A DNA stretch of 49,596 bases. It comes from Patescibacteria group bacterium. Lineage in GTDB: Bacteria; Patescibacteriota; Minisyncoccia; Minisyncoccales; JAHCRE01. The position numbers and the translations under genes are program-made. Shown piece by piece: positions 70 through 45,025 of the stretch (position 1 is the stretch's first letter; each line of letters starts with the position of its first letter). The stretch spans positions 1-49,596 of the forward strand of contig JAHCRF010000004.1 in the NCBI GenBank assembly GCA_020148055.1. Direction: 5' to 3'. The notes under the pieces were generated by a model. It saw nothing but the letters and a program-made list of their open reading frames with translations, had not been told where the DNA came from and made no database searches.

Positions 70-795
70 TTATCTTATCTGACAGAGTTCGAAAAAGGGG
101 GCTATAGCATTACGAATTTCGATTAACTTTTCTTGAGGATAGGGTTTTATTTTCTCAAATTTTGGATTAATTGTTTTTTCTGGTCTAAAATTTTGTAAAA
201 AATATTTTCCTTGCCCTTCGAAGCCCTGGCGAAGACGGGTTGGCTCCGAAATCCAGCGAGCGATTTTTAAAATATCTTCTTTTTTGAGTAAAGTAGGAAC
301 TATTGTGGTTCGAAATTCAAAATCAATTAAGGAATTTTTTAAAATTCCTAATGAGTTTTCGATGTTTTTTATATTTATTTTTCTACCAACTAATTTTTCA
401 TATCTTTCTTTTGGGGCTTTGATATCTATGGCAACATAATCAATCAATTTCTTATCAATTAAATCTTTCAACATTTTAGGATTTGATCCGTTGGTGTCTA
501 ATTTTACTGAATAGCCCAATTTTTTTATTTTTTTGACAAACTTTGGTAAATCTTCATGAATGGTTGGCTCTCCCCCACAGATCACAACCCCCCCAATTAA
601 TCGTTTTCTTTCTTTTAAAAATCCAAAAAATTCTTTTTCTGAAATTTTAGGTTGAAATTTTATTTTTTCTGGTAAGACCAGCTCTGCTGAATAACACCAC
701 GGGCATCTAAAATTGCAGCCGATAGTAAAAACCGTGCAAGCTATCTTGCCCGGATAATCGATTAAAGTTAGTTTTTGAAGACCACCTATTTTCAT
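70..795 (-). CDS. nrdG: Anaerobic ribonucleotide reductase activating protein (radical SAM)
   Basis: CxxxCxxC (CNFRCPWC), GGEPT and DTNGS motifs; directly downstream of nrdD; carries a short palindromic insert (TRLRQGFEGQ). Confidence 0.9.
   Translation of the reverse strand: MKIGGLQKLTLIDYPGKIACTVFTIGCNFRCPWCYSAELVLPEKIKFQPKISEKEFFGFLKERKRLIGGVVICGGEPTIHEDLPKFVKKIKKLGYSVKLDTNGSNPKMLKDLIDKKLIDYVAIDIKAPKERYEKLVGRKINIKNIENSLGILKNSLIDFEFRTTIVPTLLKKEDILKIARWISEPTRLRQGFEGQGKYFLQNFRPEKTINPKFEKIKPYPQEKLIEIRNAIAPFFELCQIR
210..240. repeat. In-frame palindromic insert in nrdG
   Basis: cttgcccttcgaagccctggcgaagacgggt: GC-rich imperfect hairpin in an AT-rich gene. Confidence 0.65.
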
Positions 796-799
796 GGGA

Positions 800-2920
800 T
801 TATTTAGCCGCTACCGCTTTTGGCAATTTGAATTCCTTTCGCTGTTTAAATTCCTGTTGTTTTCCCAGATTCCATTGTTGTACGGGGCGGAGATATCCGA
901 CCACCCTCGAATAAACCTCGCAGGCTTGCTTGATTGTACATTTTGGACAGAAAAAATGCTCTCCTGCTAAATAACCATGGACAGGACAAATTGAGAAAGT
1001 AGGAGTAAGAGTAATATAAGGTAATTTGAAATTTTCAAAAATTTTCTTAATTAGATTTTTAACAGTCTGAATATCAGAGACTCGCTCACCCAAAAAGAGG
1101 TGGAGTACTGTGCCACCTGTATACTTAGATTGGATTTTATCTTGAAGTTTTAAAGCTTTAAAAATATCGTTAGTATAATTCACCGGCAGTATTGTCGAAT
1201 TTGTATAATAGGGCACTTTTTTTGTTCCGGCAGTAACAATATCTGGATATTTTTCTTTATCGATTTTTGCTTGGCGATAACTTGTCCCCTCGCCGGGGGT
1301 AGCTTCTAGATTATACAAATTACCAGTTTCTTTTTGATATTTTATTAATCTTTGTCTCATAGAATCTAAAACTTCAATGGCAAATCTTCTTCCTCGGCGA
1401 GAGGCAATATTTTCGCCAATAAAATTTAAAAGGGCTTCGTTCATTCCTATTAACCCAATTGTTGAGAAGTGATTTCCATAATAGGAATTTCTTAATTTTT
1501 TAACTGGTGCTAAATAGTATTTTGAATAGGGATAAAGGCCTTTTTCCATAAAATTTTCTAAGGCCTTCCTTTTAATTTCCAAACTCTCTTTAGCTAAATC
1601 CATTAAACGAACTAATCTTTCAAAAAATTCTTTTTTAGTTTTAGAAAGGTATCCAATTCGAGGAATATTTATGGTTACCACCCCAATGCTGCCGGTAAGA
1701 GGAGCTGAGCCAAATAATCCTCCTCCTCTTTTGTAAAGTTCTTTATTTGACAATCTCAATCTACAACACATGCTTCTAAAATCTTCTGGTTTCATATCTG
1801 ATTGAATAAAATTTTGAAAATAGTTTACGCCATATTTTGCTGTTGCTTCCCATAACGGATTTAAAGCCGGGTTATTCCAATCAAAATCTTTAGTGATGCT
1901 TACGGTAGGAATAGGAAAGGTAAAGGGCCGGTTTTTAGCATCGCCTTCTATTAATATTTCATAAAAAGCCCGATTAAATGTATTCATTTCTTCCTGAAAT
2001 TCGCCATAGGTTTCCTTTTGAGGCTTTCCTCCAATAATTACTGCCTGATTGGCCAAAAATTCTGGCGACTTAATATCTAAGGTCACATTTAAGAATGGGG
2101 TTTGGAAGCCCACCCTTGTTGGCACCATGCAGTTATACAAAAATTCTTGCATTGCCTGTTTGACTTCTAAATAATTTAATCTGTCATAACGAATGAATGG
2201 GGCAAGCAAAGTATCAAAATTTGAAACAGCATTAGCTCCTGCTGTCTCGCCCTGGAGCGTATAAAAGAAATTCACCAATTGACCCAGAGCTGTGCTAAAA
2301 TGTTTTGCTGGTCGGCATTCCAACTTTCCTGTAACTCCGCCAAAACCACGCAAAAGTAAATCATATAGATCCCAACCCATACAGTAGCAAGCAAGGGTTT
2401 CTAAATTATGGATATGAAAATCCTCGTTAGTGGCGGCTTCCCTTATTTCTTTTGGGTAGACTTTATTCAGCCAGTATTTTTTAGCAATGGCTGCCATTCC
2501 ATATTGATTTAATCCTTGAAGGGAATAGCTCATATTGGCATTTTCATAAACTTGCCAGTCGAGCTCCTGTAAATAGCTATCAACCATCTCTGTTGATTCA
2601 TCAACAATTGCTGTTGCCTCCCTTATTCTTCTTCTCTGTTCTCTATATAAAATATAGGCCTTGGCAGTCTCAACCAGGCCTTCTAAAATTAAAATTTCTT
2701 CAATAATGTCTTGGATCTGCTCGACATGAGGAATTTCATCTTCCTTAAATCTTCGATTTAAAATCTTTACTATCTTATTAGAAAGTCTTTTTGCTCGCTT
2801 TCCATCACCTTTACCGGTAGCTGTTAAAGCTTTAAAAATTACATCAATAATTCTTGTCTCGTCAAAATCAACAATTGTTCCGTCTCTCTTTTGAACTTTA
2901 GTAATGTTATTTTTTACCAT
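800..2920 (-). CDS. nrdD: Class III (anaerobic) ribonucleoside-triphosphate reductase with N-terminal ATP cone
   Basis: ATP cone (VQKRDG...FD), SMCCRL, EATPGEG, zinc site CPVHG...CPKC, glycyl radical motif YSRVVGYLRP. Confidence 0.95.
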   Translation of the reverse strand: MVKNNITKVQKRDGTIVDFDETRIIDVIFKALTATGKGDGKRAKRLSNKIVKILNRRFKEDEIPHVEQIQDIIEEILILEGLVETAKAYILYREQRRRIREATAIVDESTEMVDSYLQELDWQVYENANMSYSLQGLNQYGMAAIAKKYWLNKVYPKEIREAATNEDFHIHNLETLACYCMGWDLYDLLLRGFGGVTGKLECRPAKHFSTALGQLVNFFYTLQGETAGANAVSNFDTLLAPFIRYDRLNYLEVKQAMQEFLYNCMVPTRVGFQTPFLNVTLDIKSPEFLANQAVIIGGKPQKETYGEFQEEMNTFNRAFYEILIEGDAKNRPFTFPIPTVSITKDFDWNNPALNPLWEATAKYGVNYFQNFIQSDMKPEDFRSMCCRLRLSNKELYKRGGGLFGSAPLTGSIGVVTINIPRIGYLSKTKKEFFERLVRLMDLAKESLEIKRKALENFMEKGLYPYSKYYLAPVKKLRNSYYGNHFSTIGLIGMNEALLNFIGENIASRRGRRFAIEVLDSMRQRLIKYQKETGNLYNLEATPGEGTSYRQAKIDKEKYPDIVTAGTKKVPYYTNSTILPVNYTNDIFKALKLQDKIQSKYTGGTVLHLFLGERVSDIQTVKNLIKKIFENFKLPYITLTPTFSICPVHGYLAGEHFFCPKCTIKQACEVYSRVVGYLRPVQQWNLGKQQEFKQRKEFKLPKAVAAK

Positions 2921-2961
2921 ATTTATCCGATAAAAAAACCTTTTTTAATAAAGATTAGTCT

Positions 2962-2990
2962 ATTCTAACTCAAAAGAAAAACAGGGTCAA
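2962..2990 (-). promoter_or_regulatory. sigma70-like promoter for nrdD
   Basis: TTGACC-17 bp-TAGAAT on minus strand; perfect DnaA box (TGTGGATAA) at 3011-3019 just upstream. Confidence 0.55.
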
Positions 2991-3029
2991 ACCCCGCCAA
3001 ACGCAATAATTGTGGATAACTCCTTTTAA

Positions 3030-3962
3030 TTAGAATCCGGTAGCAATAACTGTTACTTTTATTTCTCCTTTTTTCAATCTTTCACTCTGGACCGCTCCAA
3101 AGATCACTTTGGCTTCAGGATTTATCTCCTGAGTAATAACCTTAGCCACCTCATCAATCTCAGAAAGACTAATATCTCTTCCACCCGAAATATTAAACAA
3201 AACTCCTTTTGCTCCTTTACAAGACATATCAAGTAGAGGGGAATTAATTGCTCTTATGGCAGCTTCTTCAGCTCGCTTTTGACCTCGAGCTCGGCCTATT
3301 CCAAATAAAGCTGTGCCTGAATTTTTTAGAACTGCTTTCACATCAGCAAAATCAACATTGATAATACCGGGAAGTAAAATTAAATCGGAAATTCCTTGAA
3401 CCGCCTGCTTTAAAATATCATCGCAAATCCAAAAGGCATTTGAAAGAGAAATATTTGGGTCTAAAACTGAAAGAAGTTTATCATTAGAAATAGAAATTAA
3501 ACTATCAACTCTTTCTTTTAGTTCTTTGAGACCAGCTTTTGCAATATTCTTTCGAAAAATCCCCTCAAAAGAAAAAGGTTTAGTTACTACCGCCACAGTT
3601 AAAGCCCCTTGTTTTTTGGCAATCTCAGCAATAACCGGAGAGCCTCCGGTTCCGGAGCCGCCACCCAGACCGCAGGTAATAAAAACCATATCTGTGCCTT
3701 TTAAAATCTCAGAAATTTCTTTCCCTTGCTCCTCAGCCGCTTTCCTACCAATTTCTGGATTCATCCCTGTCCCTAAACCTTTAGTTAAATTCTTCCCAAT
3801 TCTGAGTTTAAAGTGGGCCCGAGTTATTTTAAGATCCTGAAGGTCGGTATTCATGGCAATCAAATCTACTCCCTCAATTTTAGATTTCATCATTCTTGTA
3901 ATGGCATTAGAACCTGAACCTCCTATTCCAACTACTTTAATTTTTGTTTTAATTTTTCTCAT
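3030..3962 (-). CDS. ftsZ: FtsZ, lacking C-terminal linker/tail
   Basis: VVGIGGSGSNA, GGGSGTG tubulin signature, NVDFAD T7 loop; ends at VIATGF. Confidence 0.92.
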   Translation of the reverse strand: MRKIKTKIKVVGIGGSGSNAITRMMKSKIEGVDLIAMNTDLQDLKITRAHFKLRIGKNLTKGLGTGMNPEIGRKAAEEQGKEISEILKGTDMVFITCGLGGGSGTGGSPVIAEIAKKQGALTVAVVTKPFSFEGIFRKNIAKAGLKELKERVDSLISISNDKLLSVLDPNISLSNAFWICDDILKQAVQGISDLILLPGIINVDFADVKAVLKNSGTALFGIGRARGQKRAEEAAIRAINSPLLDMSCKGAKGVLFNISGGRDISLSEIDEVAKVITQEINPEAKVIFGAVQSERLKKGEIKVTVIATGF

Positions 3963-4014
3963 AATTTGAGCGTTAGCGAGAAATATCCCTAGAGGTATAA
4001 TTTTATTTGAAGGA

Positions 4015-6153
4015 TTATTTTCTTTTTCCTTCTATTATTTCTTGGGTTATATTGTCCGGTATCTCTTCGTAATGATCGAATTCCATGGTGAAGGTTCCTC
4101 TCCCTTCAGTTAAAGAACGTAAAGCAGTAGCATAACCAAACATCTCAGCCAAAGGAACTTTAGCATCAATAACTTTCAGATTTATTCTATCCTTAGTTTC
4201 TTCGATTTTTCCTCGCCTAGCCGCCAAATCCGAAATAATATCTCCAAAAAATTCTGAGGGAATAATCACCTCTAATCTCATAATTGGCTCGAGTAAGACC
4301 AATTTTGCCTTCTTGGCAGCTGTCTGAAGAGCTGCCGAACCAGCAATTTTAAAAGCCATTTCTGAAGAATCAACCTCATGAAAAGAACCATCATAGAGGG
4401 TTACCTTCATATCGACCAGAGGGTAACCTGCCAAAATTCCTTTTTCTAAAGCTTCTTTTACACCTTTCTTAACTGCCGGAATAAACTCTTTAGGAATGAT
4501 TCCTCCTTTAATTTTATCGACAAATTCAAACCCCTCCCCTCGTTTTTTTGGCTCAACTTTTAACCAAACATGGCCATATTGACCGCGACCTCCCGATTGC
4601 CTGATATACTTTCCTTCAGCTTCCGATGTCCTTTTTATTGTTTCTTTGTAGGCAACTTGGGGTTTACCAACATTGCTTTCGACTTTGAATTCTCTTTTCA
4701 TTCTATCAGTAATAATTTCAAGATGTAACTCACCCATTCCAGAAATAATTGTTTCCCCAGTTTCTAAATCCTGTTTAGTTTTAAAAGTTGGGTCTTCTTC
4801 AGAGAGTTTTTTTAACACCTGGCTCATTTTTTCTTGGTCTTGTTTAGTCTTTGGCTCAATTCGGACAGCAATGACCGGTTCAGGAAAGGTAATCTTCTCA
4901 AGTAAAACTGGATGGTCCTCACTACAAAGAGTGTGACCAGTAGAAGTTTTTTTCAAGCCAATGGTGGCTCCAATGTCTCCGGCAAAGAGCTCTTGAACTT
5001 CCTCTCTTTTGCTAGCATGCATTCTTAAAATTCGACCTATTCTTTCTTTCTCCCCGGCAGTCGGATTCAAGACATAAGATCCTCTTTTTAAACATCCAGA
5101 ATAAACTCGAAAATAGATCAGGGTGCCGATATAAGGGTCGGCTGCAACTTTAAAAACCAGGGCAGAAAATGGTTCTGAATCTGAAGCTTTTCTCTCAATT
5201 TCCTGACCGGTTTTAGGATCAACCCCCTTAACTGGAGGGAGATCAACAGGATTAGGAAGAAAATCACAAACTCCATCTAATAGTGTTTGAATTCCTTTGT
5301 TTCTTAAGGCTGCTCCGCAAAAAACGGGAATAAGATTATATTCTATCGTTGCTTTCCTTAAAGCTTTTCTCAGTTCATCAACTGAAAATTCTTTTTTTGC
5401 CAAATATTTCTCTAAGACCTTTGCGTCTTCGGCTGCAATTTTTTCAACTAATTTTGCTCTCCACTTTTTAGCTTTTTCTAAGTGCTCCTTGGGGATCTCC
5501 TCAGCTTTAACTATTTGACCAAAATCACCTTCAAATCTTAACGCTTTCATCTCTAAAAGATCAATCACTCCCTCAAATTTATCTTCCTCGCCTATTGGTA
5601 ATTGAAGGGCAAGGGCCGCTGGCGATAATTTCTGCAAAATTGATTTAAGGCTTTTCTCAAAAGAGGCACCAACCCTATCCATTTTATTAATAAAGCAAAT
5701 TCTGGGTACTTTAAATTTATCTGCCTGACGCCAGACGGTCTCTGACTGAGGTTCAACTCCTGCTACTCCATCAAAAACCACTACTGCTCCATCCAGGACT
5801 CGCAATGACCTTTGAACTTCAGCCGTAAAATCAATGTGACCAGGAGTATCAATGATATTAATTTGACATTCCTTCTCTTTTCCGCCTTGTTTCGCCTGTT
5901 GCTCTGTCTCTCTTCGCCTACCGACGTAAGTCGGCACCCAGAAACACGTAGTGGCAGCAGCAGTAATAGTAATCCCCCGTTCTCTTTCCTGAATCATCCA
6001 ATCCATAATTGCCTCTCCATCATGAACTTCTCCCATCTTATGAGAAACTCCAGTGTAAAACAAAATCCGCTCAGTGACGGTTGTCTTGCCAGCGTCAATA
6101 TGGGCGATAATTCCGATATCTCGATATTGTTCTATTGGATAAATACGTGGCAT
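4015..6153 (-). CDS. fusA: Elongation factor G
   Basis: [33 protein letters not shown]. Confidence 0.98.
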
Positions 6154-6203
6154 ATCTCCTATAAATTACGAATAAGGGTCTTTAAGCGAGGGAAGTAATT
6201 TTT

Positions 6204-6264
6204 ATGGACAGGGGCCCGCGAAGCGGGAGGGTGGTGGGTGGAGTCCCGACCCCTCCTGTGCCAT
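6204..6264. repeat. GC-rich structured intergenic element between rpsG and fusA
   Basis: Outer pairing atgg-acagg/cctgtgccat enclosing cccgc-gaa-gcggg and aggg...ccct hairpins. Confidence 0.5.
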
Positions 6265-6270
6265 TTTGCT

Positions 6271-6738
6271 TTACCAAGCAAAATGGGCGAAGGCACGATT
6301 AGCTTCAGCCATACGATGCATGTTAATTTTCTTTTTTATTGCTGCCCCAGTATTATTCGAAGCCGCAATTAATTCCTCGGCTAATTTCTCTCTCATTGGT
6401 CTCCCTTTTCTTGATTTGGCTGCCTGGATTATCCAACGTATGGCTAAGGTTAATCTTCTCTCTCCTCTAACTTCTCTTGGAACCTGATAGGTTGCTCCTC
6501 CAATCCTTCTTGGTTTTACCTCAAGGAGAGGAGCAGCGTTTTTTAAAGCTAAATCAAAAATCTCCAAAGGATCTTTTTTGGTCTTTTCTTTAATAATGTC
6601 AAAGGTTCGATAGACAATTTTTCTAGCAATAGTTTTTTCACCCCGTCTCATCACTTGGTTAATGAATTTGGCTATAGTGACATTATCATAAACTGGATCA
6701 GGAGGAATATTTCTTTTTGTTTTCTTTTTCTGGCGCAT
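6271..6738 (-). CDS. rpsG: 30S ribosomal protein S7
   Basis: [24 protein letters not shown]. Confidence 0.98.
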
Positions 6739-6746
6739 AATTTTTA

Positions 6747-7157: not shown

Positions 7158-7198
7158 ATCAAATTACAATTTAACACAAATAAATTCGAAAGTCAATC

Positions 7199-7828: not shown

Positions 7829-7892
7829 TTTTTTACTATAACATACCCAAAAACCTTGCCAAAATTTTAAAAAAATCTTAAAATTAAATAAT

Positions 7893-8114: not shown

Positions 8115-8117
8115 AAT

Positions 8118-8193: not shown

Positions 8194-8197
8194 TAAA

Positions 8198-8414: not shown

Positions 8415-9485
8415 TTAGAGATTTAAAACATCTGCCATTTGTTTAATTAAAGAAACTGCCACCGGCTGAGGCAACAAACTGAAAGATTGATTCCCTTTAT
8501 CATCTAAGACTATCCAGGGTTTTTTGATTATTTTAACCTTTTTACTTTTCTCGTCCCACTGATAATTATATTCTGGAGTAATTTCATAATCATCAACATA
8601 ATCTTTTGCCAATTCTATCGGAACTGAATTTCTCAAAAGAATTTTTGGGATTCCATAGAGTGAGAAAGCTTGCTTTATTAATTTCTCGTCCATCTCCAGA
8701 CGTTCTCTTATTGGCTCTATTCCTAACTTATCACCCTCTTTTGAAACCATTTTTCTTCCTTTACAATCAGGGTTATCACAGATCAAATAAAATTCTCCCT
8801 GTTTTTTATCGAAACCTATTTCTTTTGTCGGAAATAACTTCAAATTTCTGGGGGCTTGACAAAGGGGACAAACTACTCGATGTTTCATTCTTTCGTCAAT
8901 CACGGCCTCAGGGACATCAATAAGAATAAAAATATCTGGATCCTCTCGGTAATCGATGAGGTCTCTAAAAAATAGTGAATATGATATTTGATCTAAACCT
9001 CGGGGAAAACCATCAATAAAAAGAGCCTTTCTTCCTATTTTACTTATTTTTCTTTTAACTAAAGCTAAGATGAATTCAGTTGGCAAAAGTGTCTCGGTGT
9101 TTCTGCTCAAAAGAGCTTGGATTGCCTGGTCAATTGAAATATAACCCCGGTAATTCTCTGACAGCCAATCGATTAATTCTCTTTTTTTACTCTCCTCTAA
9201 TATTTCCTGGTGAACATTCCTGACAACATCACCAATTGAAACATGATTCGCTCGCTGAGGGTCAATTATTCCTATAAATAATTTAGAATAAGTTCCTTTA
9301 CCAGAACCTTTTTTTCCTAAAAGATGAGCAATAAAAGTGTTTTTTCTTAAATAGTCTCTTAATTTTCTAATTTCCGCTCCAGCTTTCAGCTCAAAATATT
9401 CCCTACATTCTTTAGGATTAGATAAATCAAATAGGCGAGAAACGCCTTCGATCTTTGTTTTAAAAATTGGAAACTGCTGTTTCAT
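8415..9485 (-). CDS. Adenylate/nucleoside monophosphate kinase-like protein (extended)
   Basis: P-loop GKKGSGKGT, FIDGFPR, zinc lid CPLC...CDNPDC. Confidence 0.75.
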   Translation of the reverse strand: MKQQFPIFKTKIEGVSRLFDLSNPKECREYFELKAGAEIRKLRDYLRKNTFIAHLLGKKGSGKGTYSKLFIGIIDPQRANHVSIGDVVRNVHQEILEESKKRELIDWLSENYRGYISIDQAIQALLSRNTETLLPTEFILALVKRKISKIGRKALFIDGFPRGLDQISYSLFFRDLIDYREDPDIFILIDVPEAVIDERMKHRVVCPLCQAPRNLKLFPTKEIGFDKKQGEFYLICDNPDCKGRKMVSKEGDKLGIEPIRERLEMDEKLIKQAFSLYGIPKILLRNSVPIELAKDYVDDYEITPEYNYQWDEKSKKVKIIKKPWIVLDDKGNQSFSLLPQPVAVSLIKQMADVLNL

Positions 9486-10669: not shown

Positions 10670-10730
10670 CCGCCCAACTTTCGCCACGAAATTAAGAGGG
10701 CAAAAGTTATCCACAGCGAAAGTTAGGTGG
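10670..10730. repeat. Intergenic inverted-repeat element (CCGCCYAA family) enclosing a DnaA box
   Basis: ccgcccaactttcgc (10670-84) / gcgaaagttaggtgg (10716-30); TTATCCACA at 10707-10715. Confidence 0.65.
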
Positions 10731-11106: not shown

Positions 11107-12015
11107 TTACGAATTTTTACGAATATACGAATTAAGATTACTGTAAATTCGTTTAATTTCTCTTTTGGCCTCTAAATTTGTTTCCAGAATTGGAATTAAA
11201 TTTGAGATGGCTTTAAAAATTTTTTTATCATAAGATATTTTACCCAGCACCATTCCTTTGGGAAAAGTGGTGCTAGGTTTACCTAAAAATTTCCTACCGG
11301 CCCATTTCTCTATTTTATCACTTAATTGAGAATTTATATCCCACTTATTTATCACTAACCCCCAGGAAAGCTTAAAATGATTAACAACTTTTAAAACTCT
11401 TTTTAAATCAGAAAATGCCGAAGGCGTTGGCTCAGTAATTAAAATAGCAAAATTTGCATCTTGCAAAGCAGCAATAACCGGACAGCCGGTTCCCGGAGCC
11501 GAATCGATTAAGATTATTTCATGTTTAAATTTTTCCGCTTTTTTTTTAATTTCAGTAATCACTTTACCAGAACCAGTTTCCCCTGGAAAAAGATTTCCTG
11601 AAACCAAAATAAAACCATGTTTTGTTTTTTTAATTTTAATTTGTCCATTTTGAACCGGTTTTAATTTGATTGCCTTTTGAGGACAAATAACTTCACAAGC
11701 TCCACAGCCTTCGCATAAAAAATTGTTGATTGTTAACTGTTGATTGTTAATTGATAAACTTTCAAAACGACAGTTTTTTACACATAACCCACAGAGGTCA
11801 CATTTTTGTTGATTAATTTCTGGCTTTGCTGAAGCGATCACTGGCAGAGTTCTATCCCATTTTTTTATTCCTCCTAACCAAATAGCTAAATTCGGCGCAT
11901 CAGCATCACAATCTACCGCTACTATTCTCTTAGTTTCTGCGAAAAGCATCGCCAAAGCCGAAGTCAACATACTCTTTCCGACTCCTCCTTTCCCCGATAA
12001 AACAACTAATTTCAT
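11107..12015 (-). CDS. MinD-superfamily P-loop ATPase with inserted ferredoxin domain
   Basis: SGKGGVGKS, DCDADAPN, two CxxCxxCxxxC, PGTGCPV, TEPT. Confidence 0.9.
   Translation of the reverse strand: MKLVVLSGKGGVGKSMLTSALAMLFAETKRIVAVDCDADAPNLAIWLGGIKKWDRTLPVIASAKPEINQQKCDLCGLCVKNCRFESLSINNQQLTINNFLCEGCGACEVICPQKAIKLKPVQNGQIKIKKTKHGFILVSGNLFPGETGSGKVITEIKKKAEKFKHEIILIDSAPGTGCPVIAALQDANFAILITEPTPSAFSDLKRVLKVVNHFKLSWGLVINKWDINSQLSDKIEKWAGRKFLGKPSTTFPKGMVLGKISYDKKIFKAISNLIPILETNLEAKREIKRIYSNLNSYIRKNS
11239..11283. repeat. 39-bp in-frame palindromic insert with 6-bp direct repeat
   Basis: tttacc at 11239-44 and 11278-83; IR acccagcacca/tggtgctaggt; protein reads LGK-PSTTFPKGMV-LGK. Confidence 0.8.
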
Positions 12016-12470: not shown

Positions 12471-12634
12471 ATTTTTATTATTTCAACTCTAACAAAAATT
12501 GGTTTTCCAACTTTTAAAACTAAAAGATAAATTCTTTTCACGTTTAAAATTTTTTTACCAAAAAAATATTTTCCTGCCCTCTTGCTCCGCAAGACGAAGC
12601 GGACGGGCATTCTACCAGTATTTTTCTAAAGAGT

Positions 12635-14888: not shown

Positions 14889-15779
14889 TTAAATAAAAAA
14901 ATTAAGCAATTTTCCTTGAGAATAAGCTTTAACTAGTTTTTTTGAATAAGGAATTTCTTTATCTATCTTAATTTTATACTTTTTAGTAATGTTTTCAATT
15001 TCAGTTTTGTCTCCTAAATTGGCTTGGTTTAAAATTATTTTAGTTTTTACTTTGAGTTTTTGGCATAAATCTAAAATCAAATTTAAGTCATGGGCTCCCA
15101 TTGGAGTGGGTTCAGTAACAGCATAGGCTAAATCGCAATCCAAAATAGCTGAAATTACTGGACAATGAATACCCGGAGCGGTATCAAACAAAATATAATT
15201 TGCCTTATTTTTTTTTGCTAGATTTAAGGCAAATTTTTTTGTCTGACTTACTATCGGGCCGGTTTCTTCCAAGCCTGGTTTTGCCGAGCCGGTGATTAAC
15301 CAAAAATTATCTTTTATTTTATTAACAAAAATTTGGCCAACTTCTTCTTTCTCCGGTTCAATAGCTCCATGAGGACAAACAATCCAGCAAGCTCCACAGC
15401 CAGAGCACAAATCTTTGATAAATACTGGATATTTTCCCGGAGGTTGAAAAATGGCATTATTTCTACAAGTTTTTGCACACAATCCACATTTTTTACATTT
15501 TGTTTTATTTAATTTTGGGAACTCGGCATAAACTTTTTTTTGAGGTTTTTTCAATTTCTGGCCCAATAATAAATAATCATTTGGGCACTCAACATCACAA
15601 TCGCAGAGAATAACTCCGCCTCCTCGGCGGGTCGCCGAAGAGGCGACTTTTTCTATTTCTTTAACTAATTTATTAGCAAATAAAATAGCAATCGTACTTT
15701 TCCCAGTGCCCCCTTTTCCTCCAGTTATAGCAATTTTAATTATTTTTTGATTGTTGATTTTTGATTTTTGATTTCGCAT
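14889..15779 (-). CDS. Second MinD-superfamily P-loop ATPase with ferredoxin domain
   Basis: GGKGGTGKS, DCDVECPN, two ferredoxin motifs, TEPT. Confidence 0.9.
   Translation of the reverse strand: MRNQKSKINNQKIIKIAITGGKGGTGKSTIAILFANKLVKEIEKVASSATRRGGGVILCDCDVECPNDYLLLGQKLKKPQKKVYAEFPKLNKTKCKKCGLCAKTCRNNAIFQPPGKYPVFIKDLCSGCGACWIVCPHGAIEPEKEEVGQIFVNKIKDNFWLITGSAKPGLEETGPIVSQTKKFALNLAKKNKANYILFDTAPGIHCPVISAILDCDLAYAVTEPTPMGAHDLNLILDLCQKLKVKTKIILNQANLGDKTEIENITKKYKIKIDKEIPYSKKLVKAYSQGKLLNFFI
15615..15650. repeat. In-frame double-hairpin insert in ATPase gene
   Basis: ccgcc-tcctc-ggcgg followed by gtcgcc-gaaga-ggcgac; encodes VASSATRRGG. Confidence 0.75.
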
Positions 15780-16798: not shown

Positions 16799-17905
16799 TC
16801 AACAGGGGCCAATAATTATTCCCCCACCTAAAACCTCCTGATTTTTGTAAAAAACTACTGACTGGCCAGGAGTTATTGCTCGCTGAGGTTTGTCGAATTT
16901 TAGATGATAGATATTAGATTTTAGATAATAGACGGTTGCTGGCGAGGCTCTGTGTCGATATCTTATCTTAGCTTTTATTCTCAATGGTAATTTTGGAGCT
17001 TTTCCCGAAATCCAGTTAACATCTTTAGCCAAAAGTTCTCTTTTATACAAATCTTTTTCATTTTTAGTAACAATTAAAAGATTTTCCTTTTGATTTTTAT
17101 CTAAAACATAATGAGGACCACCAGGAAGTTCTATTCCTTTTCTTTGGCCAATAGTGTAAAAACATACCCCCTGATGTTGCCCAACAATTTTTCTTGCCCC
17201 GTAGTGAACTTGTTCTACTATGGGGCCTGGTTTTGCTTTGAGATGCTGCTTTAAAAAATCATTTACTGTTGTTTTTATAAAACAAATTTCCATGGATTCT
17301 GGAATATTAAGAACTGGCAACTTTAACTTTTTTGCCAATTTTCTAACTCTATCTTTGGTATATTCTCCAATTGAAAACAAAATATGCTTTAATTGATTTT
17401 GATTTAACATCCAAAGAAAATAAGACTGGTCTTTATTTTCATCTTTTGCTTTTAATAATTTGTAATTTTTGCTTTTTGCTTTCTGATTTTTGATTTCGTG
17501 CTTTAGGGCGTAGTGGCCAGTTGCTACATAATCTGCTTCCAAAGCCAGGGCTTTTTCCAGCAGGATCCCAAATTTTATTTTTTTGTTACAAACAACGCAG
17601 GGATTTGGAGTTCTACCTGTTTTATGTTCTTTTAAAAAATAATCGACAATTCCTTTTTTAAATTCTTTTTCAAAATTAAAAACATAAAAAGGGAGACTCA
17701 AGATTTTAGCTACTTGTCTTGCTCTTTTTTCAGCTTCTGGAGAACAACACCGGTTCCAGGAACCCCTCAGGTCGGCTTCTGACCAAAACTTCATAAAAAT
17801 TCCAATAACATCAAAACCAGCCCTTTTTAAAAGGGCAGCAGCTACTGATGAATCGATACCGCCAGACATTGCCACTATTACTCTTTTTGATCTCAATTTT
17901 CTCAT
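16799..17905 (-). CDS. mnmA: tRNA 2-thiouridine(34) synthase
   Basis: SGGIDSS, PNPCVVCN, ATGHY, KDQSYFL, TIGQRKG, TPGQ. Confidence 0.95.
   Translation of the reverse strand: MRKLRSKRVIVAMSGGIDSSVAAALLKRAGFDVIGIFMKFWSEADLRGSWNRCCSPEAEKRARQVAKILSLPFYVFNFEKEFKKGIVDYFLKEHKTGRTPNPCVVCNKKIKFGILLEKALALEADYVATGHYALKHEIKNQKAKSKNYKLLKAKDENKDQSYFLWMLNQNQLKHILFSIGEYTKDRVRKLAKKLKLPVLNIPESMEICFIKTTVNDFLKQHLKAKPGPIVEQVHYGARKIVGQHQGVCFYTIGQRKGIELPGGPHYVLDKNQKENLLIVTKNEKDLYKRELLAKDVNWISGKAPKLPLRIKAKIRYRHRASPATVYYLKSNIYHLKFDKPQRAITPGQSVVFYKNQEVLGGGIIIGPC
17196..17226. repeat. In-frame palindromic insert in mnmA
   Basis: gccccgtagt-gaacttgttct-actatggggc hairpin; encodes PIVEQVHYGA. Confidence 0.75.
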
Positions 17906-24517: not shown

Positions 24518-24543
24518 AAAAAACCCCGAGAAAAACTCTCGGG
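24518..24543 (-). terminator. Intrinsic terminator downstream of degV
   Basis: cccgag/ctcggg hairpin followed by a T-tract on minus; near-copy at 25598-25616. Confidence 0.6.
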
Positions 24544-28535: not shown

Positions 28536-29030
28536 TTAAGATAACGGTTGGGACATAGGATAGTATTTAATTTCTTTAATCCTATAAATTATTTTTATTG
28601 GAGAAGTGATTATTATCTCATCGCCGGTCTTTCTTCCCAGAAGGGCTTTCCCGACTGGAGATTGAGAAGATATCTTTCCTTCGCTTGGATTGGCCTCTAA
28701 TGTTCCAACAATCATAAATTCATTGATTTTACCATCTTGTTCTTCTAAAGTGACGATTGCTCCCAGATTAACAATGCCCTGTTTTCCTTTAGGAGGAGTT
28801 TTAATTATCTTGACATTCTCTAATATGTTATCTAATTCAGCTATTCTAAACTCTAAACGGCTCAGATCTTCTTGAAAAGAAAGATATTCAGGGTTTACAT
28901 CTTGGGAGTGTAAAATCTTAGGCCTTGTGCCTTTAATTTTATTCAACCTAAGAACTTTAAGATCTTTATATTCTTTTTTTATTCTTTCTAATCCTTCTTT
29001 AGTTAGGTAAAATTTCTTTTTTTCTGCCAT
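28536..29030 (-). CDS. greA: GreA/GreB family transcription elongation factor
   Basis: YLTKEG, NPEY, IVGTLEANP..GKIS..SPVGKAL. Confidence 0.88.
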   Translation of the reverse strand: MAEKKKFYLTKEGLERIKKEYKDLKVLRLNKIKGTRPKILHSQDVNPEYLSFQEDLSRLEFRIAELDNILENVKIIKTPPKGKQGIVNLGAIVTLEEQDGKINEFMIVGTLEANPSEGKISSQSPVGKALLGRKTGDEIIITSPIKIIYRIKEIKYYPMSQPLS

Positions 29031-29044
29031 ATTATTTGGAATCT

Positions 29045-29300
29045 AAAGTGAAAGAACCTCCTGGATTTGGAGGTTCAGTAGTTTGTAAATTTTTTAATCT
29101 TTAGGGTTTTATCTTTCTCCTACTGAACCTCGCAAATAATTTTTTGGTAATGGTAATAAAGCACCAAACACCTCTATCAAGAATATGGCCAGTTAAGGAG
29201 TTTGAAAGATTAATTTTCTCTTTTTGCTTTCTCATTTTCTTAACTTTTTATCAATTCTCTCAACCGATTTCCATTATACCCGACCAAGAAACCCTGTCAA
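29045..29300 (-). promoter_or_regulatory. greA leader: promoter, 44-aa leader ORF, terminator/antiterminator
   Basis: TTGACA-16-TATAAT (29273-29300); ORF 29101-29235; terminator stem 29054-76; competing 12-bp helix 29070-81/29120-31. Confidence 0.6.
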
Positions 29301-29390
29301 GTTTTTCCAACTAATTCTTAGTTTAATGTGTCAAAATAATCTGTCAAGTCAACCTTTATCTTTCCATAAAGTTCTAATATAATTAAAATA

Positions 29391-29597
29391 ATGATTTCAA
29401 CAATTTTAGTTTTACTCTCTTTAGCCGCCATTTTATTTATGGCCATAATTGGAACAGTTATTTTTTTTCATTTTAAAAGATTCAGCGTTCCAAAAGATCC
29501 ATTTGCTAAGCGAGTTTTGAACATTTTTGAAATCGGTAGCTTATTTATTATTTTATTAAATTTTGTTTTGTTAGCCTTAAATCTTTTAAAAAAATGA
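29391..29597 (+). CDS. Small 2-TM hypothetical protein
   Basis: Two hydrophobic helices; stop overlaps the next start (ATGA). Confidence 0.7.
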   Translation: MISTILVLLSLAAILFMAIIGTVIFFHFKRFSVPKDPFAKRVLNIFEIGSLFIILLNFVLLALNLLKK

Positions 29598-30160
29598 TTA
29601 CCCTTCGCCCAAATGAAAAAATTTATCTAATTAAACGTCGCCATTGGCTCATCTTGATGAGAAGCCTTCTTCCTGAATTTCTAATCTTTTTAGCAACTAT
29701 TATCTTGATGATTACTCTTATTTTTATTCCCCTTCCCTCCTGGCCGAACTGGCTGACAAATTTTATTCCCTCTATTCTGGAACTTGAGATCCGTTATCTT
29801 TCATTATTCCTTCTTAGTCTTTTTCTCTTGGTTATCTGGACAATTAGCTTTTTGATTGTTACTAACTATTATCTTGACTGTTGGATTGTTACTAATGAAA
29901 GAACTATTCATACCGAACTTAGGGGACTTTTTAGCCGGATCTTTTCTAGTATCAACCATGACAAAATTCAGGATATTACAATAGAAATCCAAGGATTCTT
30001 CCCAGCAATTCTTCGTTTCGGTGATCTTTATATCCAAACAGCTGGTGAATTTCGAGAATTTGTTTTTCGCCAGATTCCCCAACCCCACAAAACAAGGGTA
30101 ATTATTTTTAAAGCTCAAAAAGAATTTTTGAAAAGGATGAAAAAAGATGGAGTTTTATAA
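29594..30160 (+). CDS. Bacterial PH-domain membrane protein
   Basis: EKIYLIKRRHW, two TM, WIVTNER, KIQDI, FGDLYIQTAG. Confidence 0.8.
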   Translation: MITLRPNEKIYLIKRRHWLILMRSLLPEFLIFLATIILMITLIFIPLPSWPNWLTNFIPSILELEIRYLSLFLLSLFLLVIWTISFLIVTNYYLDCWIVTNERTIHTELRGLFSRIFSSINHDKIQDITIEIQGFFPAILRFGDLYIQTAGEFREFVFRQIPQPHKTRVIIFKAQKEFLKRMKKDGVL

Positions 30161-31461: not shown

Positions 31462-31785
31462 ATGATAGAGGAAGTTAGGGCTCACCCGCCTAAATTTTCA
31501 AAAGAAAAATTTGGGCGGGCTCATATTTTTGTTTCAGGAAGGGTTCAGGGAGTTTTTTTTCGAGAAAATACTCGCGAAAAGGCCGAGGAATTAGGAGTTT
31601 TTGGCTGGGTTAAAAATTTAGCCGATGGCCGAGTTGAAGCAGTTTTTGAAGGAGAAAAAGAAAAAGTCGAGAGCTTGATTGAATGGGCTAAAAAGGGGCC
31701 CGAAATTGCCAGAGTAAATGATATTGATGTTGAATGGCAAGAATACAAAGGAGAGTTTAAAAATTTTGATATTAGATATTCTTAA
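31462..31785 (+). CDS. acyP: Acylphosphatase with N-terminal palindromic insert
   Basis: [23 protein letters not shown]. Confidence 0.92.
31478..31523. repeat. 39-bp in-frame palindromic insert with 7-bp direct repeat
   Basis: gggctca at 31478-84 and 31517-23; IR cccgcctaaatttt/aaaatttgggcggg; protein reads [16 protein letters not shown]. Confidence 0.85.
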
Positions 31786-36939: not shown

Positions 36940-36970
36940 AATTCTAAATTCTAAATTCTAAATAATATTT

Positions 36971-38981: not shown

Positions 38982-38999
38982 TAATTTTTAAAAATAAGA

Positions 39000-39892: not shown

Positions 39893-39915
39893 ATTGTGAA
39901 TTTAGAAAGGAGAAC

Positions 39916-39967
39916 AGCCCACCCCCTCTGGGGTGGGCTTGATAATTTTTCTTTGGCCATTTATAAT
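39916..39967 (+). promoter_or_regulatory. 10-bp GC hairpin abutting a sigma70 promoter
   Basis: agcccacccc-ctct-ggggtgggct, then TTGATA-17-TATAAT. Confidence 0.55.
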
Positions 39968-39996
39968 TTAATAATTAATAATTAATTTTTAAAAAT

Positions 39997-41412: not shown

Positions 41413-41492
41413 AAAATTGAGAGAAGGTTCTCAATATCAATATACTTTACAAAAAGTCCGACTTAAAGCGGGCTTTTTGTTATAATAGAATA

Positions 41493-42395
41493 ATGCTTCC
41501 TAGCTATTTAAATCTTCCAAAAAAAGAATTGAAATCAAGAATTGAAAAACTTTTTAAGATTTTAGAAAATTGTGAAATCTGTCCAAGAAAATGCCATGTG
41601 AACAGGTTAAAAAGAAAAGAAGGATTTTGTAAATTAGGTTTCCTGCCAATGATTTCAGCTTCCCATCCCCATTTTGGCGAAGAATCAGTTTTGGTCGGAG
41701 AACATGGTTCTGGAACTATCTTCTTTACTTCCTGTAATTTAGCCTGTGTTTATTGCCAAAATTATGAGATCTCTCAATTAAGAATAGGAAAAGAAATTTC
41801 CTTTGAAAAATTGGCTGAAATAATGATTAGTCTTCAAAATAGAGGTTGCCACAATATTAATTTAGTTACTCCTAGTCCCCAGGTTCCTCAAATTATGAGG
41901 GCTCTCTTGATTGCCATAGATCAGGGTTTAAAATTACCTTTAGTTTACAATACCAGTGCCTATGACTCAGTTGAAACCCTAAAATTACTTGATGGAATTA
42001 TTGATATCTATATGCCTGATACCAAATACAGTGATGATAACATTTCCTTAAGATATTCTAATGCCCCAAATTATTTTAAAATTATGAAATCAGCTATTAA
42101 AGAAATGCACAGACAGGTCGAAGATTTAATTATCGATAAAGAAGGTATAGCTACTCGGGGTTTGCTAATCAGACATTTGGTTTTACCCAATAATTTAGCT
42201 GGTTCTGAAAAAATTTTTGAATTTTTGGCAAAAGAAATTGGACCTGATACTTTTTTGAATATTATGAATCAATATCATCCTCATTTTAAGGCTTTTGAAT
42301 TCCCTGAACTTTCTCGGAGAATCACAACTGAAGAACATCGGAAAACAATCAAATTAGCTAAAAAAGTCGGTCTAAAACGGCTTCATCGAGAATAG
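41493..42395 (+). CDS. PflX-like radical SAM protein
   Basis: CEICPRKC, CNLACVYC, HNINLVTP, RHLVLP. Confidence 0.88.
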   Translation: MLPSYLNLPKKELKSRIEKLFKILENCEICPRKCHVNRLKRKEGFCKLGFLPMISASHPHFGEESVLVGEHGSGTIFFTSCNLACVYCQNYEISQLRIGKEISFEKLAEIMISLQNRGCHNINLVTPSPQVPQIMRALLIAIDQGLKLPLVYNTSAYDSVETLKLLDGIIDIYMPDTKYSDDNISLRYSNAPNYFKIMKSAIKEMHRQVEDLIIDKEGIATRGLLIRHLVLPNNLAGSEKIFEFLAKEIGPDTFLNIMNQYHPHFKAFEFPELSRRITTEEHRKTIKLAKKVGLKRLHRE

Positions 42396-42401
42396 TTTAA
42401 A

Positions 42402-43433
42402 ATGATAAACCTAAAGACTAAAAACCTATTTTCTCTTTTTTTATTAGTAGGATTATTATTTTTAGTAATTTTATTTTCTATTTATGTTTATATTATTAAC
42501 AAAGAAATCAGTTCTCTTTACCTAACAGCAATTATTGGCAGGCCTTTGATTCAGAAAGAAGAAACTTCATTACCAAAACCAATAACTCTAATGTTTGTCG
42601 GAGACATCATGCTTAATCGAGGAGTAGAATTGATGGTTCAAAAATATGGTAATAGTGATTGGAAATGGCCATTCTCGAAAATTGAAGGTTATTTGCAACA
42701 AGCTGATATTTTATTTGGAAATTCAGAAGGACCAATTTCTGATAAGGGAATAAAGGTTGGTAGTATCTATTCATTCCGAGCAAATCCAAAAGCCATCGAA
42801 GGTTTGACCTATGCCGGTTTTGACATTCTCTCAGTTGCCAATAACCATATCTTTGATTATGGCCGAGAAGCAATGGAAGATAATTTTTTGAGATTAAAAG
42901 GAGCCGGGATAGATTATGTTGGCGGTGGATTTAATGAAATCGAAGCTCGTTCTCCTATAATAAAAGAAATCAACGGCACAAAAATCGCTTTTTTAGCCTA
43001 CACTAATTTGGGTTCAGAATATTGGTCAGCTAAAGAAAATCAATCAGGAATCGCCTGGTTAGATGATAAAATTGTAAGGGATATCAAAATGACAAAAGAA
43101 AAAGCCGATATAGTAATAGTTTCAATGCATTTTGGTGAAGAATACCAGTCGCAAGCAAGTTCAGAGCAGAAATATTTTGCCCACCTTGCTATTGATTCTG
43201 GAGCCCATTTAGTAGTAGGTCATCATTCCCATGTTGTCCAAAAAGTTGAAAGATATAAAGACGGTCTCATTGCTTATTCCCTCGGAAATTTTATTTTTGA
43301 CCAAGGATTTTCTGAAAAAACCATGGAAGGACTTTTATTAAAAGTGATCATCAAAGATAATAAAATAAAAGAACTAATCCCAATTGAAATCAAGATTAAC
43401 AAATTCTTCCAGCCAGAGATTACAAATGAATGA
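42402..43433 (+). CDS. CapA family metallophosphoesterase
   Basis: GDIML, ANNH..DYG, H.GEE, GHHSH, YSLGNF; N-terminal TM. Confidence 0.88.
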   Translation: MINLKTKNLFSLFLLVGLLFLVILFSIYVYIINKEISSLYLTAIIGRPLIQKEETSLPKPITLMFVGDIMLNRGVELMVQKYGNSDWKWPFSKIEGYLQQADILFGNSEGPISDKGIKVGSIYSFRANPKAIEGLTYAGFDILSVANNHIFDYGREAMEDNFLRLKGAGIDYVGGGFNEIEARSPIIKEINGTKIAFLAYTNLGSEYWSAKENQSGIAWLDDKIVRDIKMTKEKADIVIVSMHFGEEYQSQASSEQKYFAHLAIDSGAHLVVGHHSHVVQKVERYKDGLIAYSLGNFIFDQGFSEKTMEGLLLKVIIKDNKIKELIPIEIKINKFFQPEITNE

Positions 43434-43480
43434 TCTCTAATAGCCAAATGCTTTCTACTTTTCGGTTTTTAAAGTAAGAA

Positions 43481-44005
43481 ATGAAAATAAAAAATATTTT
43501 TATTACTGGAAAGCCGGGCTGTGGGAAAACTAGTTTGATAATGGAAATTTTAAAAGAACTCGATTTTAATGCCGGTGGGTTTTATACAAAAGAAATTAGA
43601 GAAAGCGGGATAAGAAAAGGGTTTAAAATAACTAATCTAAATGGCAAAGAAGGAATTTTAGCCCATGTAAATATTAAAAGTCCTTACAAAGTTTCGAAAT
43701 ACAAAGTAAATACAAAAGATTTGGAAGAAATTGGAGTAAAATCAATTCTCAACGCTTTAAAAGAAAATAAAATAATCCTAATTGATGAAGTGGGAAAAAT
43801 GGAAATGATGTCTGAGAAGTTTAAAAAGACAGTTAGAACTGCTTTAAATAGTAAAAATAAAGTTTTGGGAACAATAAAAATGACGCCTGATCCCTTTACA
43901 AATAAGATTAAGGGCAGAGATGATGCAAAAATTTTTTATTTAACTAGAGAGAACCGAGAAAAAATTAAAAAAGAAATAATCAGGTTATTGAGTCCAACTA
44001 ATTAA
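43481..44005 (+). CDS. THEP1/NTPCR-type nucleoside-triphosphatase
   Basis: TGKPGCGKTS, GGFYTKEIR, IDEVGKME. Confidence 0.88.
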   Translation: MKIKNIFITGKPGCGKTSLIMEILKELDFNAGGFYTKEIRESGIRKGFKITNLNGKEGILAHVNIKSPYKVSKYKVNTKDLEEIGVKSILNALKENKIILIDEVGKMEMMSEKFKKTVRTALNSKNKVLGTIKMTPDPFTNKIKGRDDAKIFYLTRENREKIKKEIIRLLSPTN

Positions 44006-45025
44006 AGTTTCTTTCATTTTAAATTTTCCTTCAATAAATTTCTTGATGACCCAAATGTTTGTTTTGCAATGATTTGTGATTTCAGAAACGAAAACTTCAC
44101 TTTTGCCTTTAGTTAAAGCTAAAAAAGGTAAAATTTGATCAGCTAAATGTTTATCTAAACAGGCTTGAGTTTTTTGTTCCCTTAATAATTTTAAAGCTGC
44201 TTCTTTTCCGACATCTTCAGCCCTTTTTCCTAATTTTCCTAGATTATCAGTGCCAATGATTGTATTTTCAAATTCAGCTATCAGACAAATCTGGCTTCCC
44301 GGACATTGAGTTTGATAATATTCGATTCTCTCTTCAACTGGTAATTTTAACTTTCCTAAAACTTCTCTAACTCCAGCGATTTGCCTTCCAGCTACTTTTT
44401 TATTTTTTAAAAATTCTGAAGCTCCAGAAATTATCAAAATTTTTTGAAGATTACCTCTTTCTAAAAGATTGAGGTTTTTTAGTTTGGATGGACATATCTT
44501 CACCTCAACGTTTGCCCCACCTTCTGGATAATAACCTCTCTTAATTATATCAATCTCAATAGAGCGAGAAATGTTCTCGCTCTGAATCGGGATCATTTTT
44601 CCTAAAATTTTTAGAAAAACATAACGAAAATAGTCAATAGTTGGAGAGAAAAAAGTATCGGTAGCCCCGCCATTGAAAACAATCTTTATTGGTTCTGGGG
44701 CAAAAAGGGCCGGTATTATTAAGGTCTGTAAAACTAAAGTAATGCTTCCAGCGGTTTCAATTTTGATATGGAGATCCTTAGCTTTAATTTCTTCTGGCCA
44801 AAATTTAATTTCTTCTGAACCCAAAAAATCTCCTTCCAATCTTCCGTTGCAAAGCTTAGCTAGAGCCTGAATTCCCAAAAGATGTTGAGGCATTAAACCC
44901 GGCTTTGATCTTTTTTTCCGAATATTGAAAATAAAACAAGGTTTTTTAGTGACTGCCGAAAGTGCCGAAGCCACTCGAAGTATCCCCCCACCGCCCTCAA
45001 ATTTTGAACCGTCAATTTCAATCAT
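43985..45025 (-). CDS. rtcA: RNA 3'-terminal phosphate cyclase
   Basis: IDGS..EGGG.ILR, PGL..QH, RGYYPEGG, HLADQ. Confidence 0.92.
   Translation of the reverse strand: MIEIDGSKFEGGGGILRVASALSAVTKKPCFIFNIRKKRSKPGLMPQHLLGIQALAKLCNGRLEGDFLGSEEIKFWPEEIKAKDLHIKIETAGSITLVLQTLIIPALFAPEPIKIVFNGGATDTFFSPTIDYFRYVFLKILGKMIPIQSENISRSIEIDIIKRGYYPEGGANVEVKICPSKLKNLNLLERGNLQKILIISGASEFLKNKKVAGRQIAGVREVLGKLKLPVEERIEYYQTQCPGSQICLIAEFENTIIGTDNLGKLGKRAEDVGKEAALKLLREQKTQACLDKHLADQILPFLALTKGKSEVFVSEITNHCKTNIWVIKKFIEGKFKMKETLISWTQ
44561..44593. repeat. In-frame hairpin insert in rtcA
   Basis: Perfect agagcgagaa-atg-ttctcgctct followed by gaatcgggat; encodes IPIQSENISRS. Confidence 0.65.

Follow-up and report, generated by a model that had tools for sequence, protein, structure and literature searches.

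The conserved proteins encoded by a 49,596-nucleotide stretch of a Patescibacteria genome carry short lineage-specific inserts, which at five of seven sites coincide with a significant hairpin in the DNA. These inserts are probably, though by no means certainly, copies of non-autonomous hairpin-forming repeats that resemble repetitive extragenic palindromes (REPs), miniature inverted-repeat transposable elements (MITEs) and the Rickettsia palindromic elements (RPEs), and that have colonised an order of small-genome Patescibacteria. The stretch (the window; contig JAHCRF010000004.1) is the entire contig C9 of a 487,415-bp, 14-contig genome (G000; 34% GC, 91.6% complete). It is about 90% coding, and its genes are ordinary housekeeping ones (NrdD/NrdG, FtsZ, EF-G, S7, S12, MnmA, IscS/IscU, AcyP and RtcA), together with those for two MinD-type ATPases with ferredoxin domains, ATPase 1 (Fer1, 11107-12015) and ATPase 2 (Fer2, 14889-15779). 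Two DNA sequencing runs contain this stretch, one of them with 0.63 of the words in common, which makes it a near strain; no RNA run is listed. A preliminary description, made from the letters of the window, had named seven coding sites at which a hairpin seemed to be inserted in frame. Lineage-specific in-frame inserts of 4 to 13 codons are present at all seven:

211..240, minus strand: NrdG activase insert TRLRQGFEGQ, 10 additional codons, GC-rich, with the ends CCC...GGGCAAGG.
5881..5913, minus strand: EF-G insert, 11 additional codons, purine-rich, in the G domain, at an indel hot spot.
11239..11286, minus strand: Fer1 insert, 13 additional codons (39 nt) composed of a 35-nt hairpin and a direct repeat.
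15615..15647, minus strand: Fer2 insert VASSATRRGGG, 11 additional codons (33 nt).
17188..17230, minus strand: MnmA insert, a family A element (CCCC..AGTAG-stem-loop-CTACGGGGCAAG) translated as GPIVEQVHYGAR, a net gain of four codons.
31477..31523, plus strand: AcyP insert after residue 5, 13 additional codons (31477-31515).
44561..44600, minus strand: RtcA insert, a net gain of eight codons, with a perfect 10-bp stem and a 3-nt loop (44561-44583).

For comparison we used a panel of 40 related genomes with sizes of 0.3-0.9 Mb (those singled out below are G001, G002, G003, G010, G028, G029, G032 and G037), and aligned 13-15 orthologues per named protein. At each of the seven sites 13-15 orthologues were compared and 12-15 of them are without the insert; for Fer1, it is missing from all 10 true orthologues aligned, the other four alignment rows being a paralogue. 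The Fer2 and AcyP inserts are absent from every orthologue (14 of 14 and 15 of 15, respectively). The RtcA insert is likewise missing, one of the 15 orthologues having a 3-aa insert there. NrdG lacks the insert in 14 of 15 cases, and the remaining orthologue, that of G037, carries another insert there, of 6 aa. In EF-G the insert is missing from 13 of 15. The other two have gained 10-11 aa of unrelated sequence at this position, and one orthologue shows further inserts close by. The MnmA insert is not private to G000, as G001 and G003 carry it too; 12 of 15 orthologues are without it, and MnmA of G028 has an unrelated insert at that site. Three sites were struck in separate lineages: residue 186 of NrdG, the G domain of EF-G and residue 30 of MnmA. 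The indels coincide with the hairpins, and their lengths are divisible by three, as had been foreseen in the preliminary description.

The strength of each hairpin was assessed by folding the single-stranded DNA against 200 dinucleotide shuffles, and is given as a z-score with the number of shuffles that fold equally well. The hairpins in Fer1 (dG -12.4, z -4.0, 2/200), Fer2 (dG -15.5 to -16.4, z -5.0, 0/200), MnmA (z -4.2, 0/200), AcyP (dG -12.9, z -4.5, 0/200) and RtcA (z -4.3, 0/200) all exceed what shuffled sequence produces. At five of the six hairpin-like sites, both hairpin arms lie within the inserted segment in the codon view of the alignments; the Fer2 insert, for instance, contains both arms of a 13-bp stem. 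Since both arms are new sequence at these sites, the hairpin came in whole, and a local template switch from adjoining gene sequence could be rejected for the same five of six.

One trivial explanation is an artefact of metagenome assembly, binning or gene calling, and AcyP would be its best example: the hairpin lies 23 nt past the start codon and a T-rich stretch comes next, as if an upstream terminator had been joined to the gene by a miscalled start. The assembly is also in 14 contigs. On the other hand, the frame is kept by all inserts, and similar inserts occur in 39 independently assembled genomes, including one that is a single contig of 639,534 bp. For AcyP itself, an upstream terminator combined with a miscalled start was rejected: the orthologues begin M-x-E-(K/E) like the long frame, and no in-frame start exists downstream of the insert. 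We regard an artefact as highly improbable.

Hairpins are in excess over chance in the window and genome-wide. In an energy-based scan, segments of 45 nt in the coding sequence of the window gave 21, 7 and 3 peaks at or below -8, -10 and -12 kcal/mol, compared with 5-13, 0-4 and 0-1 in codon shuffles. None of the 10 codon-shuffled controls matched the observed counts, which bears out the earlier expectation that hairpin density would stand above such controls. A count of perfect stems in the same coding sequence was not significant (7 versus 1-8 in 20 codon shuffles). Ten coding peaks in the window reach -9 kcal/mol or lower; four of them are located at inserts, and these include the three strongest. 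Across the whole of G000, 57 perfect GC-rich hairpins were found, compared with 3-8 in local-composition shuffles; the two relatives that we used whole, G001 (same family, 788 kb, 96% complete) and G032 (same order, complete, a single contig of 639,534 bp), gave 165 versus 6-18 and 96 versus 6-13. In G000, 37 of the 57 are intergenic, many followed by a T-run. The excess extends to insertions in proteins. In 307 orthologue triplets from G000, G001 and G032 (94,099 residues), G000 has 21 private clean insertions of at least 7 aa and four private deletions. Private inserts of at least 5 aa that fold with z below -2 relative to same-letter shuffles number 14 of 62 in G000, 19 of 52 in G001 and 40 of 113 in G032, the last set not being polarised. 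The mean GC content of the inserts is 0.46-0.51, compared with 0.34 for the genome.

Some of the inserts belong to dispersed families that recur at unlinked loci. Family A, to which the MnmA hairpin belongs (49 bits, E 2e-8 with the family A covariance model R1), spans 33-50 nt. It opens with CCCC, followed after some further bases by AGTAG, then by a stem-loop that varies between copies, and closes with CTACGGGGCAAG. Alignment of 18 copies from three genomes revealed compensatory changes at 7 of 11 base pairs; the base of the stem and the GGGGCAAG end are conserved, while the hairpin tips vary freely within near-perfect stems. In 13 of the 18 copies CTAC (GTAG on the other strand) stands at the stem base, inside an outer CCCC/GGGG stem. 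The covariance model retrieved 217 matches in 25 of the 40 related genomes, with 0-38 per genome and none in the other 15; G000 has 6 copies, G001 has 19 and G002 has 38. One of the matches in G002 fills exactly the gap of a split RtcA match. Three genomes together have 32 copies, of which about 15 are inside genes with clear orthologues, where the element is translated in all three sense phases (...YGAS, ...PTGQA and ...LRGKG) and sometimes antisense; 23 of the 32 match the dominant coding strand (p 0.02). Two inverted adjacent doublets are found in G001, whose MnmA gene also has a second family-A-like copy nested within the loop of the first.

Family B consists of CCCGCCCAAATTTT, a loop and AAAATTTGGGCGGG. 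Twelve of its 18 loci are exactly 35 nt long, and the AcyP insert holds a copy at 31485-31519 (regular-expression match) with CTCA at both flanks; a direct repeat of 6-7 nt borders the insert. At clean gaps four of five copies add exactly 13 codons (35 + 4 = 39 nt). The Fer1 insert, which is bordered by a direct repeat of about 4-7 nt (GGTAAA, or LGK..LGK in the protein), shares this 35 + 4 layout but has a different sequence. Flanking words of family B match at three or more of four positions at 8 of the 18 loci, with CTTG, TTTA and TGAA recurring; they may be target duplications, target preference or ends of the element itself. At the cleanest pair of filled and empty sites (G000 C10) the empty sites have no CAAG, which is thus derived from the element there; at one family B site CAAG is present in the empty orthologue.

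Family C is an element of about 90 nt with two covarying hairpins. It was detected in 4 of the 40 genomes by BLAST. Two other genes of G000 carry it in frame, in opposite orientations, and so does a gene of G001. The window has a remnant of it:

6200..6266, plus strand: family C remnant between the EF-G and S7 genes, an internally deleted copy of the ~90-nt element.

This remnant has the 5' GGGGCCCGCGAAGCGGGAGGG and 3' GGGTGG..GGAGTCC blocks in common with full family C copies, folds with z -2.2 (6/200) and, with a GC content of 0.8, is the highest GC island of the window. An Rfam scan of the window returned two tRNAs only, and gave no match for the family C copies; no known RNA family accounts for the hairpins.

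Families A and B have a common GGG(G)CAAG end, which is enriched 2-9 fold. In G000, GGGGCAAG occurs 13 times compared with 4.6 expected, and CGGGGCAAG occurs 7 times compared with 0.8. The cttgcc starts that the preliminary description had pointed out are real and represent the reverse complement of this end (CTTGCCC/GGGCAAG). Its proposal of several families of 30-45 bp was right as to the existence of families, and too narrow as to their sizes, which run from 23 nt to about 90 nt. When each insert was searched for with BLAST, relatives were obtained for MnmA, RtcA and, weakly, AcyP; the RtcA hairpin has related copies of 22-24 nt at C6:64012 and C1:6346 of G000.

Could each hairpin instead have arisen at its site by mutation, with no mobile element, selection retaining those that are in frame? 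Template switching at stalled forks, quasi-palindrome correction and slippage are the candidate processes. Near-perfect stems with freely differing tips are what intra-strand templated correction is expected to leave, the AcyP and Fer1 inserts are bordered by direct repeats, and the inserts of Fer1, Fer2, NrdG and EF-G are orphans by BLAST. Small-genome bacteria are, in addition, generally credited with few repair genes. Against such processes stand the ends and the architecture that copies of families A, B and C have in common although they lie at unlinked loci, in up to 25 of 40 genomes, and the occurrence of one element of about 90 nt in different genes in both orientations. With both arms new at five of six sites, the inserts are also not inverted copies of adjoining gene sequence. 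We consider a purely mutational origin unlikely.

A second alternative is that the hairpins are retained for a function of their own, so that their spread reflects selection and not selfish copying. They might serve in mRNA stability or processing, as translational pausing sites, as protein-binding DNA sites or as useful peptide loops. The covariation of family A stems would suit such a role, as would the terminator-like arrangement of related hairpins with T-runs after tRNA and protein genes, and the sites in NrdG (residue 186), EF-G (G domain) and MnmA (residue 30) that were hit in more than one lineage. Against it stand the patchy distribution of family A, which varies from 0 to 38 copies per genome and is absent from 15 of the 40, and the orthologues that function without inserts. 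The use of three reading frames and the antisense strand by one element shows that no peptide is conserved, and the inserts appear to be located in low-confidence loops of the predicted structures. A functional explanation of the spread thus seems to us quite unlikely.

AlphaFold2 models of two of the proteins place both inserts in loops linking secondary-structure elements, as the preliminary description had expected. In the predicted RtcA structure (mean pLDDT 93.0), the insert lies in loop 143-155, which joins helix 130-142 to strand 156-162; pLDDT drops below 50 only over residues 149-153. In the Fer2 model the insert is predicted to extend the end of helix 27-46 and form the loop 47-55 ahead of strand 56-60.

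Taken as copies of non-autonomous repeats, the inserts could be explained as follows. Several families, from 23-nt hairpins up to elements of about 90 nt and GC-rich within a 34% GC genome, would have spread through genomes that are about 90% coding, so that many landings would fall inside genes. The coding copies visible today would be the filtered remainder: those that added a length divisible by three, have no stop in the frame that is read and landed in loops tolerant of extra residues. The survivors would be translated into loops rich in Gly, Ala, Arg, Pro and Ser. The best candidate for the enzyme would be a REP-associated tyrosine transposase (RAYT)-like HUH (Y1) transposase that acts in trans on single-stranded hairpins and is present in many relatives. 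Matches to Y1_Tnp (PF01797) occur in 22 of the 40 relatives. They occur in 13 of the 16 genomes with at least five family A copies and in 9 of the 24 others (Fisher p 0.0097), with a Spearman rho of 0.42 between Y1_Tnp and family A copy number, both statistics ignoring relatedness. The inverted doublets, the orientation shared by 23 of 32 family A copies with the dominant coding strand and the GTAG at the stem base, although it lies inside the outer stem, lend this enzyme further partial support. The candidate enzyme was not found in G000; on this reading the copies in the window are probably immobile relics, and some of them, such as that in NrdG, would already be decaying.

Several observations weigh against this reading. 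The NrdG insert folds no better than its shuffles (z -0.4, 67/200) and the EF-G insert forms no significant hairpin (z -0.55, 56/200), so that the hairpin announced for NrdG and the possible one in EF-G did not withstand the comparison. For the Fer1, Fer2, NrdG and EF-G inserts, no relative came up when BLAST was run on G000 itself, on two related genomes in full and on the loci of the orthologues, and sequence search leaves them unassigned to a family. Six of the 10 strongest coding hairpins of the window are conserved sequence without an indel. A strict two-ended motif (TTYACCC..GGGCARG) is barely enriched in G000 (2 versus 0-1), and a 'superfamily' defined by it was dropped for this weak enrichment. 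Identical 4-nt flanks occur at just 5 of the 18 family B loci (CAAG/CTTG at four, CTCA in AcyP), and come from a small recurrent set. BLAST found no near-identical copies of the window inserts in G000, so that movement is something we infer only. The enzyme raises further difficulties. Genome-wide, a search with PF01797 as the sole profile turned up no Y1 transposase in either G000 (92% complete) or G001 (96% complete), the latter with 19 family A copies. Together with the lack of near-identical copies, this does not sustain the earlier statement that the elements are 'actively creating' new loops. A RAYT gene flanked by the same hairpins had also been suggested as something to look for; no family A match lies within ~1.5 kb of nine Y1-like genes in relatives. 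A single Y1-like protein, that of G032, was scanned with the NCBIfam RAYT model and reached 43 bits, the cut-off being 80. HUH enzymes produce no target duplications, and the 4-nt flank repeats of family B suit a cut-and-paste enzyme better than a RAYT-like one. For the window itself, a Pfam scan of its proteins found no transposase-like domain, in agreement with the preliminary description.

A more far-reaching version of the mobile-repeat explanation is that the hairpins are adapted to genes: the 35-nt family B element plus a 4-nt duplication gives exactly 39 nt (13 codons), and with elements open in several frames and both orientations each landing would be frame-neutral, in a genome nearly devoid of intergenic space. 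In such a scheme new copies would also land in the loops of older ones as nested hairpins, the mover would be a single-strand-specific HUH (RAYT-like) or unrecognised enzyme acting in trans and repeatedly lost, and the elements would be a regular source of protein loops across Patescibacteria. We put this forward as a tentative idea with a modest chance of being right.

Hairpins between genes had been listed as well, at five places, and two of these are significant:

12572..12610, minus strand: intergenic hairpin with the ends CCC...GGGCAGG (z -2.2, 4/200).
47808..47833, minus strand: intergenic hairpin with an 11-bp stem (dG -10.3, z -5.85, 0/200).

The second separates two minus-strand genes and is not followed by a T-run. 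The other three, at 10670 (z -1.7, 16/200), 33749 (z -0.6, 52/200) and 15792 (z +0.1, 99/200), are not above their shuffles. Another repeated hairpin, CCCGAGAG-aaaa-CTCTCGGG, is located at 24525-24543 of the window, with a T-run after the hairpin on the other strand, and also at C2:57, C8:57, C14:15443, C5:57611, C14:14048, C14:10433 and C2:561 of G000. It is found after tRNA genes and a DegV gene and resembles a shared intrinsic terminator. Three contigs terminate in an identical 76-nt stretch that contains it, indicating an assembly break. In G001, three near-identical copies of family C are nested in hairpins of this type. Hairpins also occur in conserved coding sequence for ribosomal protein S7 (6493-6535, -11.1 kcal/mol) and a permease (46925-46955, -11.3 kcal/mol); they show no indel relative to two relatives and are possibly chance or mRNA structure.

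Further insertions were seen in relatives. At residue 30, MnmA of G032 (C1 ~443398-444718) contains an extra 62 aa that consist of a repeated unit translated as VDELRSSSRFANARVF, and MnmA of G028 (L053) has a single VDELRSSSRFANARVF-type unit at the same site. Related units, GEEDKSSSLPFAAARV and the like, are inserted in many further genes of G032; this is an additional hairpin family, absent from the window. The ATPase 1 orthologues L026 (G029) and L028 (G010) have a common 16-aa insert (NKNLP..RQNLDS.RI) after the P-loop helix, at a structural position equal to that of the Fer2 insert in the window paralogue. In the window, an adenylate-kinase-like gene (8415-9485, minus strand) encodes 356 aa compared with a 151-position ADK profile; its Pfam match is split across residues 130-269, and it may contain more insertions or an extension. 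A 91-aa reading frame (47523-47798, minus strand) matches only EF-Tu domain 2 (PF03144, E 4e-9) and could be a stand-alone domain protein or a gene fragment. At 29000-29600 the GC skew flips from about -0.19 to +0.10 and the genes all change from the minus to the plus strand, which resembles a replication origin or terminus.

Rickettsia has so far been the textbook case of selfish palindromes in housekeeping genes. If the explanation by mobile repeats is correct, the same lifestyle now appears in metagenome genomes of Patescibacteria (the candidate phyla radiation, CPR), with much shorter units and, within one order, in no fewer than 25 of the 40 genomes. Hairpin elements would then account for part of the odd 'CPR-specific' insertions in conserved proteins. 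For annotators and tree builders, such loops would be non-homologous characters, and the covariance models can be used to mask the elements. It also raises the question of how mobile hairpins are tolerated and filtered in a genome of 0.5 Mb with about 90% coding sequence, and by which enzyme they are moved.

How do these elements compare with known systems? No report connecting REP, RAYT, MITE or coding palindromes with Patescibacteria was found in the literature, supplements not being covered. Intrinsic terminators differ in that the coding inserts are internal to genes, and a stem with a T-run is confined to the CCCGAGAG family and many of the 37 intergenic hairpins. GC clusters of yeast mitochondria are GC-rich palindromic mini-elements that spread in very AT-rich DNA, occasionally into coding sequence; they differ from the Patescibacteria elements in being organellar and of other sequence families. 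Coding palindromes of Nematomorpha mitochondria are also hairpin-forming inverted repeats within protein-coding genes; the genome is compact and AT-rich, and gains and losses of the repeats distinguish the species. According to the portions of PMC6649704 that describe them, however, they are long and perfect repeats whose arms encode conserved residues, with no inserted family, whereas the Patescibacteria hairpins are extra sequence missing from orthologues.

Bacterial MITEs come closer. The sections of PMC2229807 devoted to them describe small non-autonomous stem-loop repeats with open frames through the element and in-frame fusions to genes, as in the 107-bp form of Correia/NEMIS, ERIC and YPAL. 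The MITEs described there are about 100-200 bp long with terminal inverted repeats and TA duplications (PMC2229807). The Patescibacteria elements are palindromic end to end, and five of the 18 family B loci have identical 4-nt flanks. No parent insertion sequence or DDE transposase is linked to them, PF01797 being the sole profile searched genome-wide. With REPs and REPINs they share GC-rich imperfect palindromes of 30-40 nt in many copies (6 in G000, up to 38 in G002), the inverted adjacent doublets in G001, and a correlation of copy number with RAYT-like Y1 genes, which 22 of the 40 relatives have. A GTAG is found beside the family A stem base in 13 of 18 copies, although inside the outer stem. 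They differ in that REPs are by name extragenic and about half of the family A copies are inside genes, that no Y1 gene was found in G000, and that the nine Y1-like genes examined in relatives are not flanked by the hairpins.

The RPEs (Ogata et al. 2000), as summarised in parts of PMC2229807 and also PMC6649704, have a length of 105-146 bp, and 19 cases of in-frame insertion into conserved genes are described. In both cases, as far as these summaries go, dispersed palindromic families occur in a reduced AT-rich genome, between genes as well as in frame in housekeeping proteins; there are several families, no mobilising enzyme is known and copies decay. The Patescibacteria elements are mostly 23-50 nt, with one family of about 90 nt, in contrast to the lengths given in PMC2229807, and the two are likened by architecture and not by sequence kinship. 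The host is also a different one, and the Patescibacteria hairpins differ at their tips through compensatory changes, with a conserved stem base and GGGGCAAG end. Altogether, the Patescibacteria elements depart from each system in defining features: from RPEs in length, and from REPs in lacking an extragenic position and a flanked RAYT gene; nor do they show a parent element or a clear pattern of terminal repeats and duplications as in MITEs. The closest known system is that of the Rickettsia palindromic elements, followed by REP/REPIN and the MITEs fused in frame to genes.

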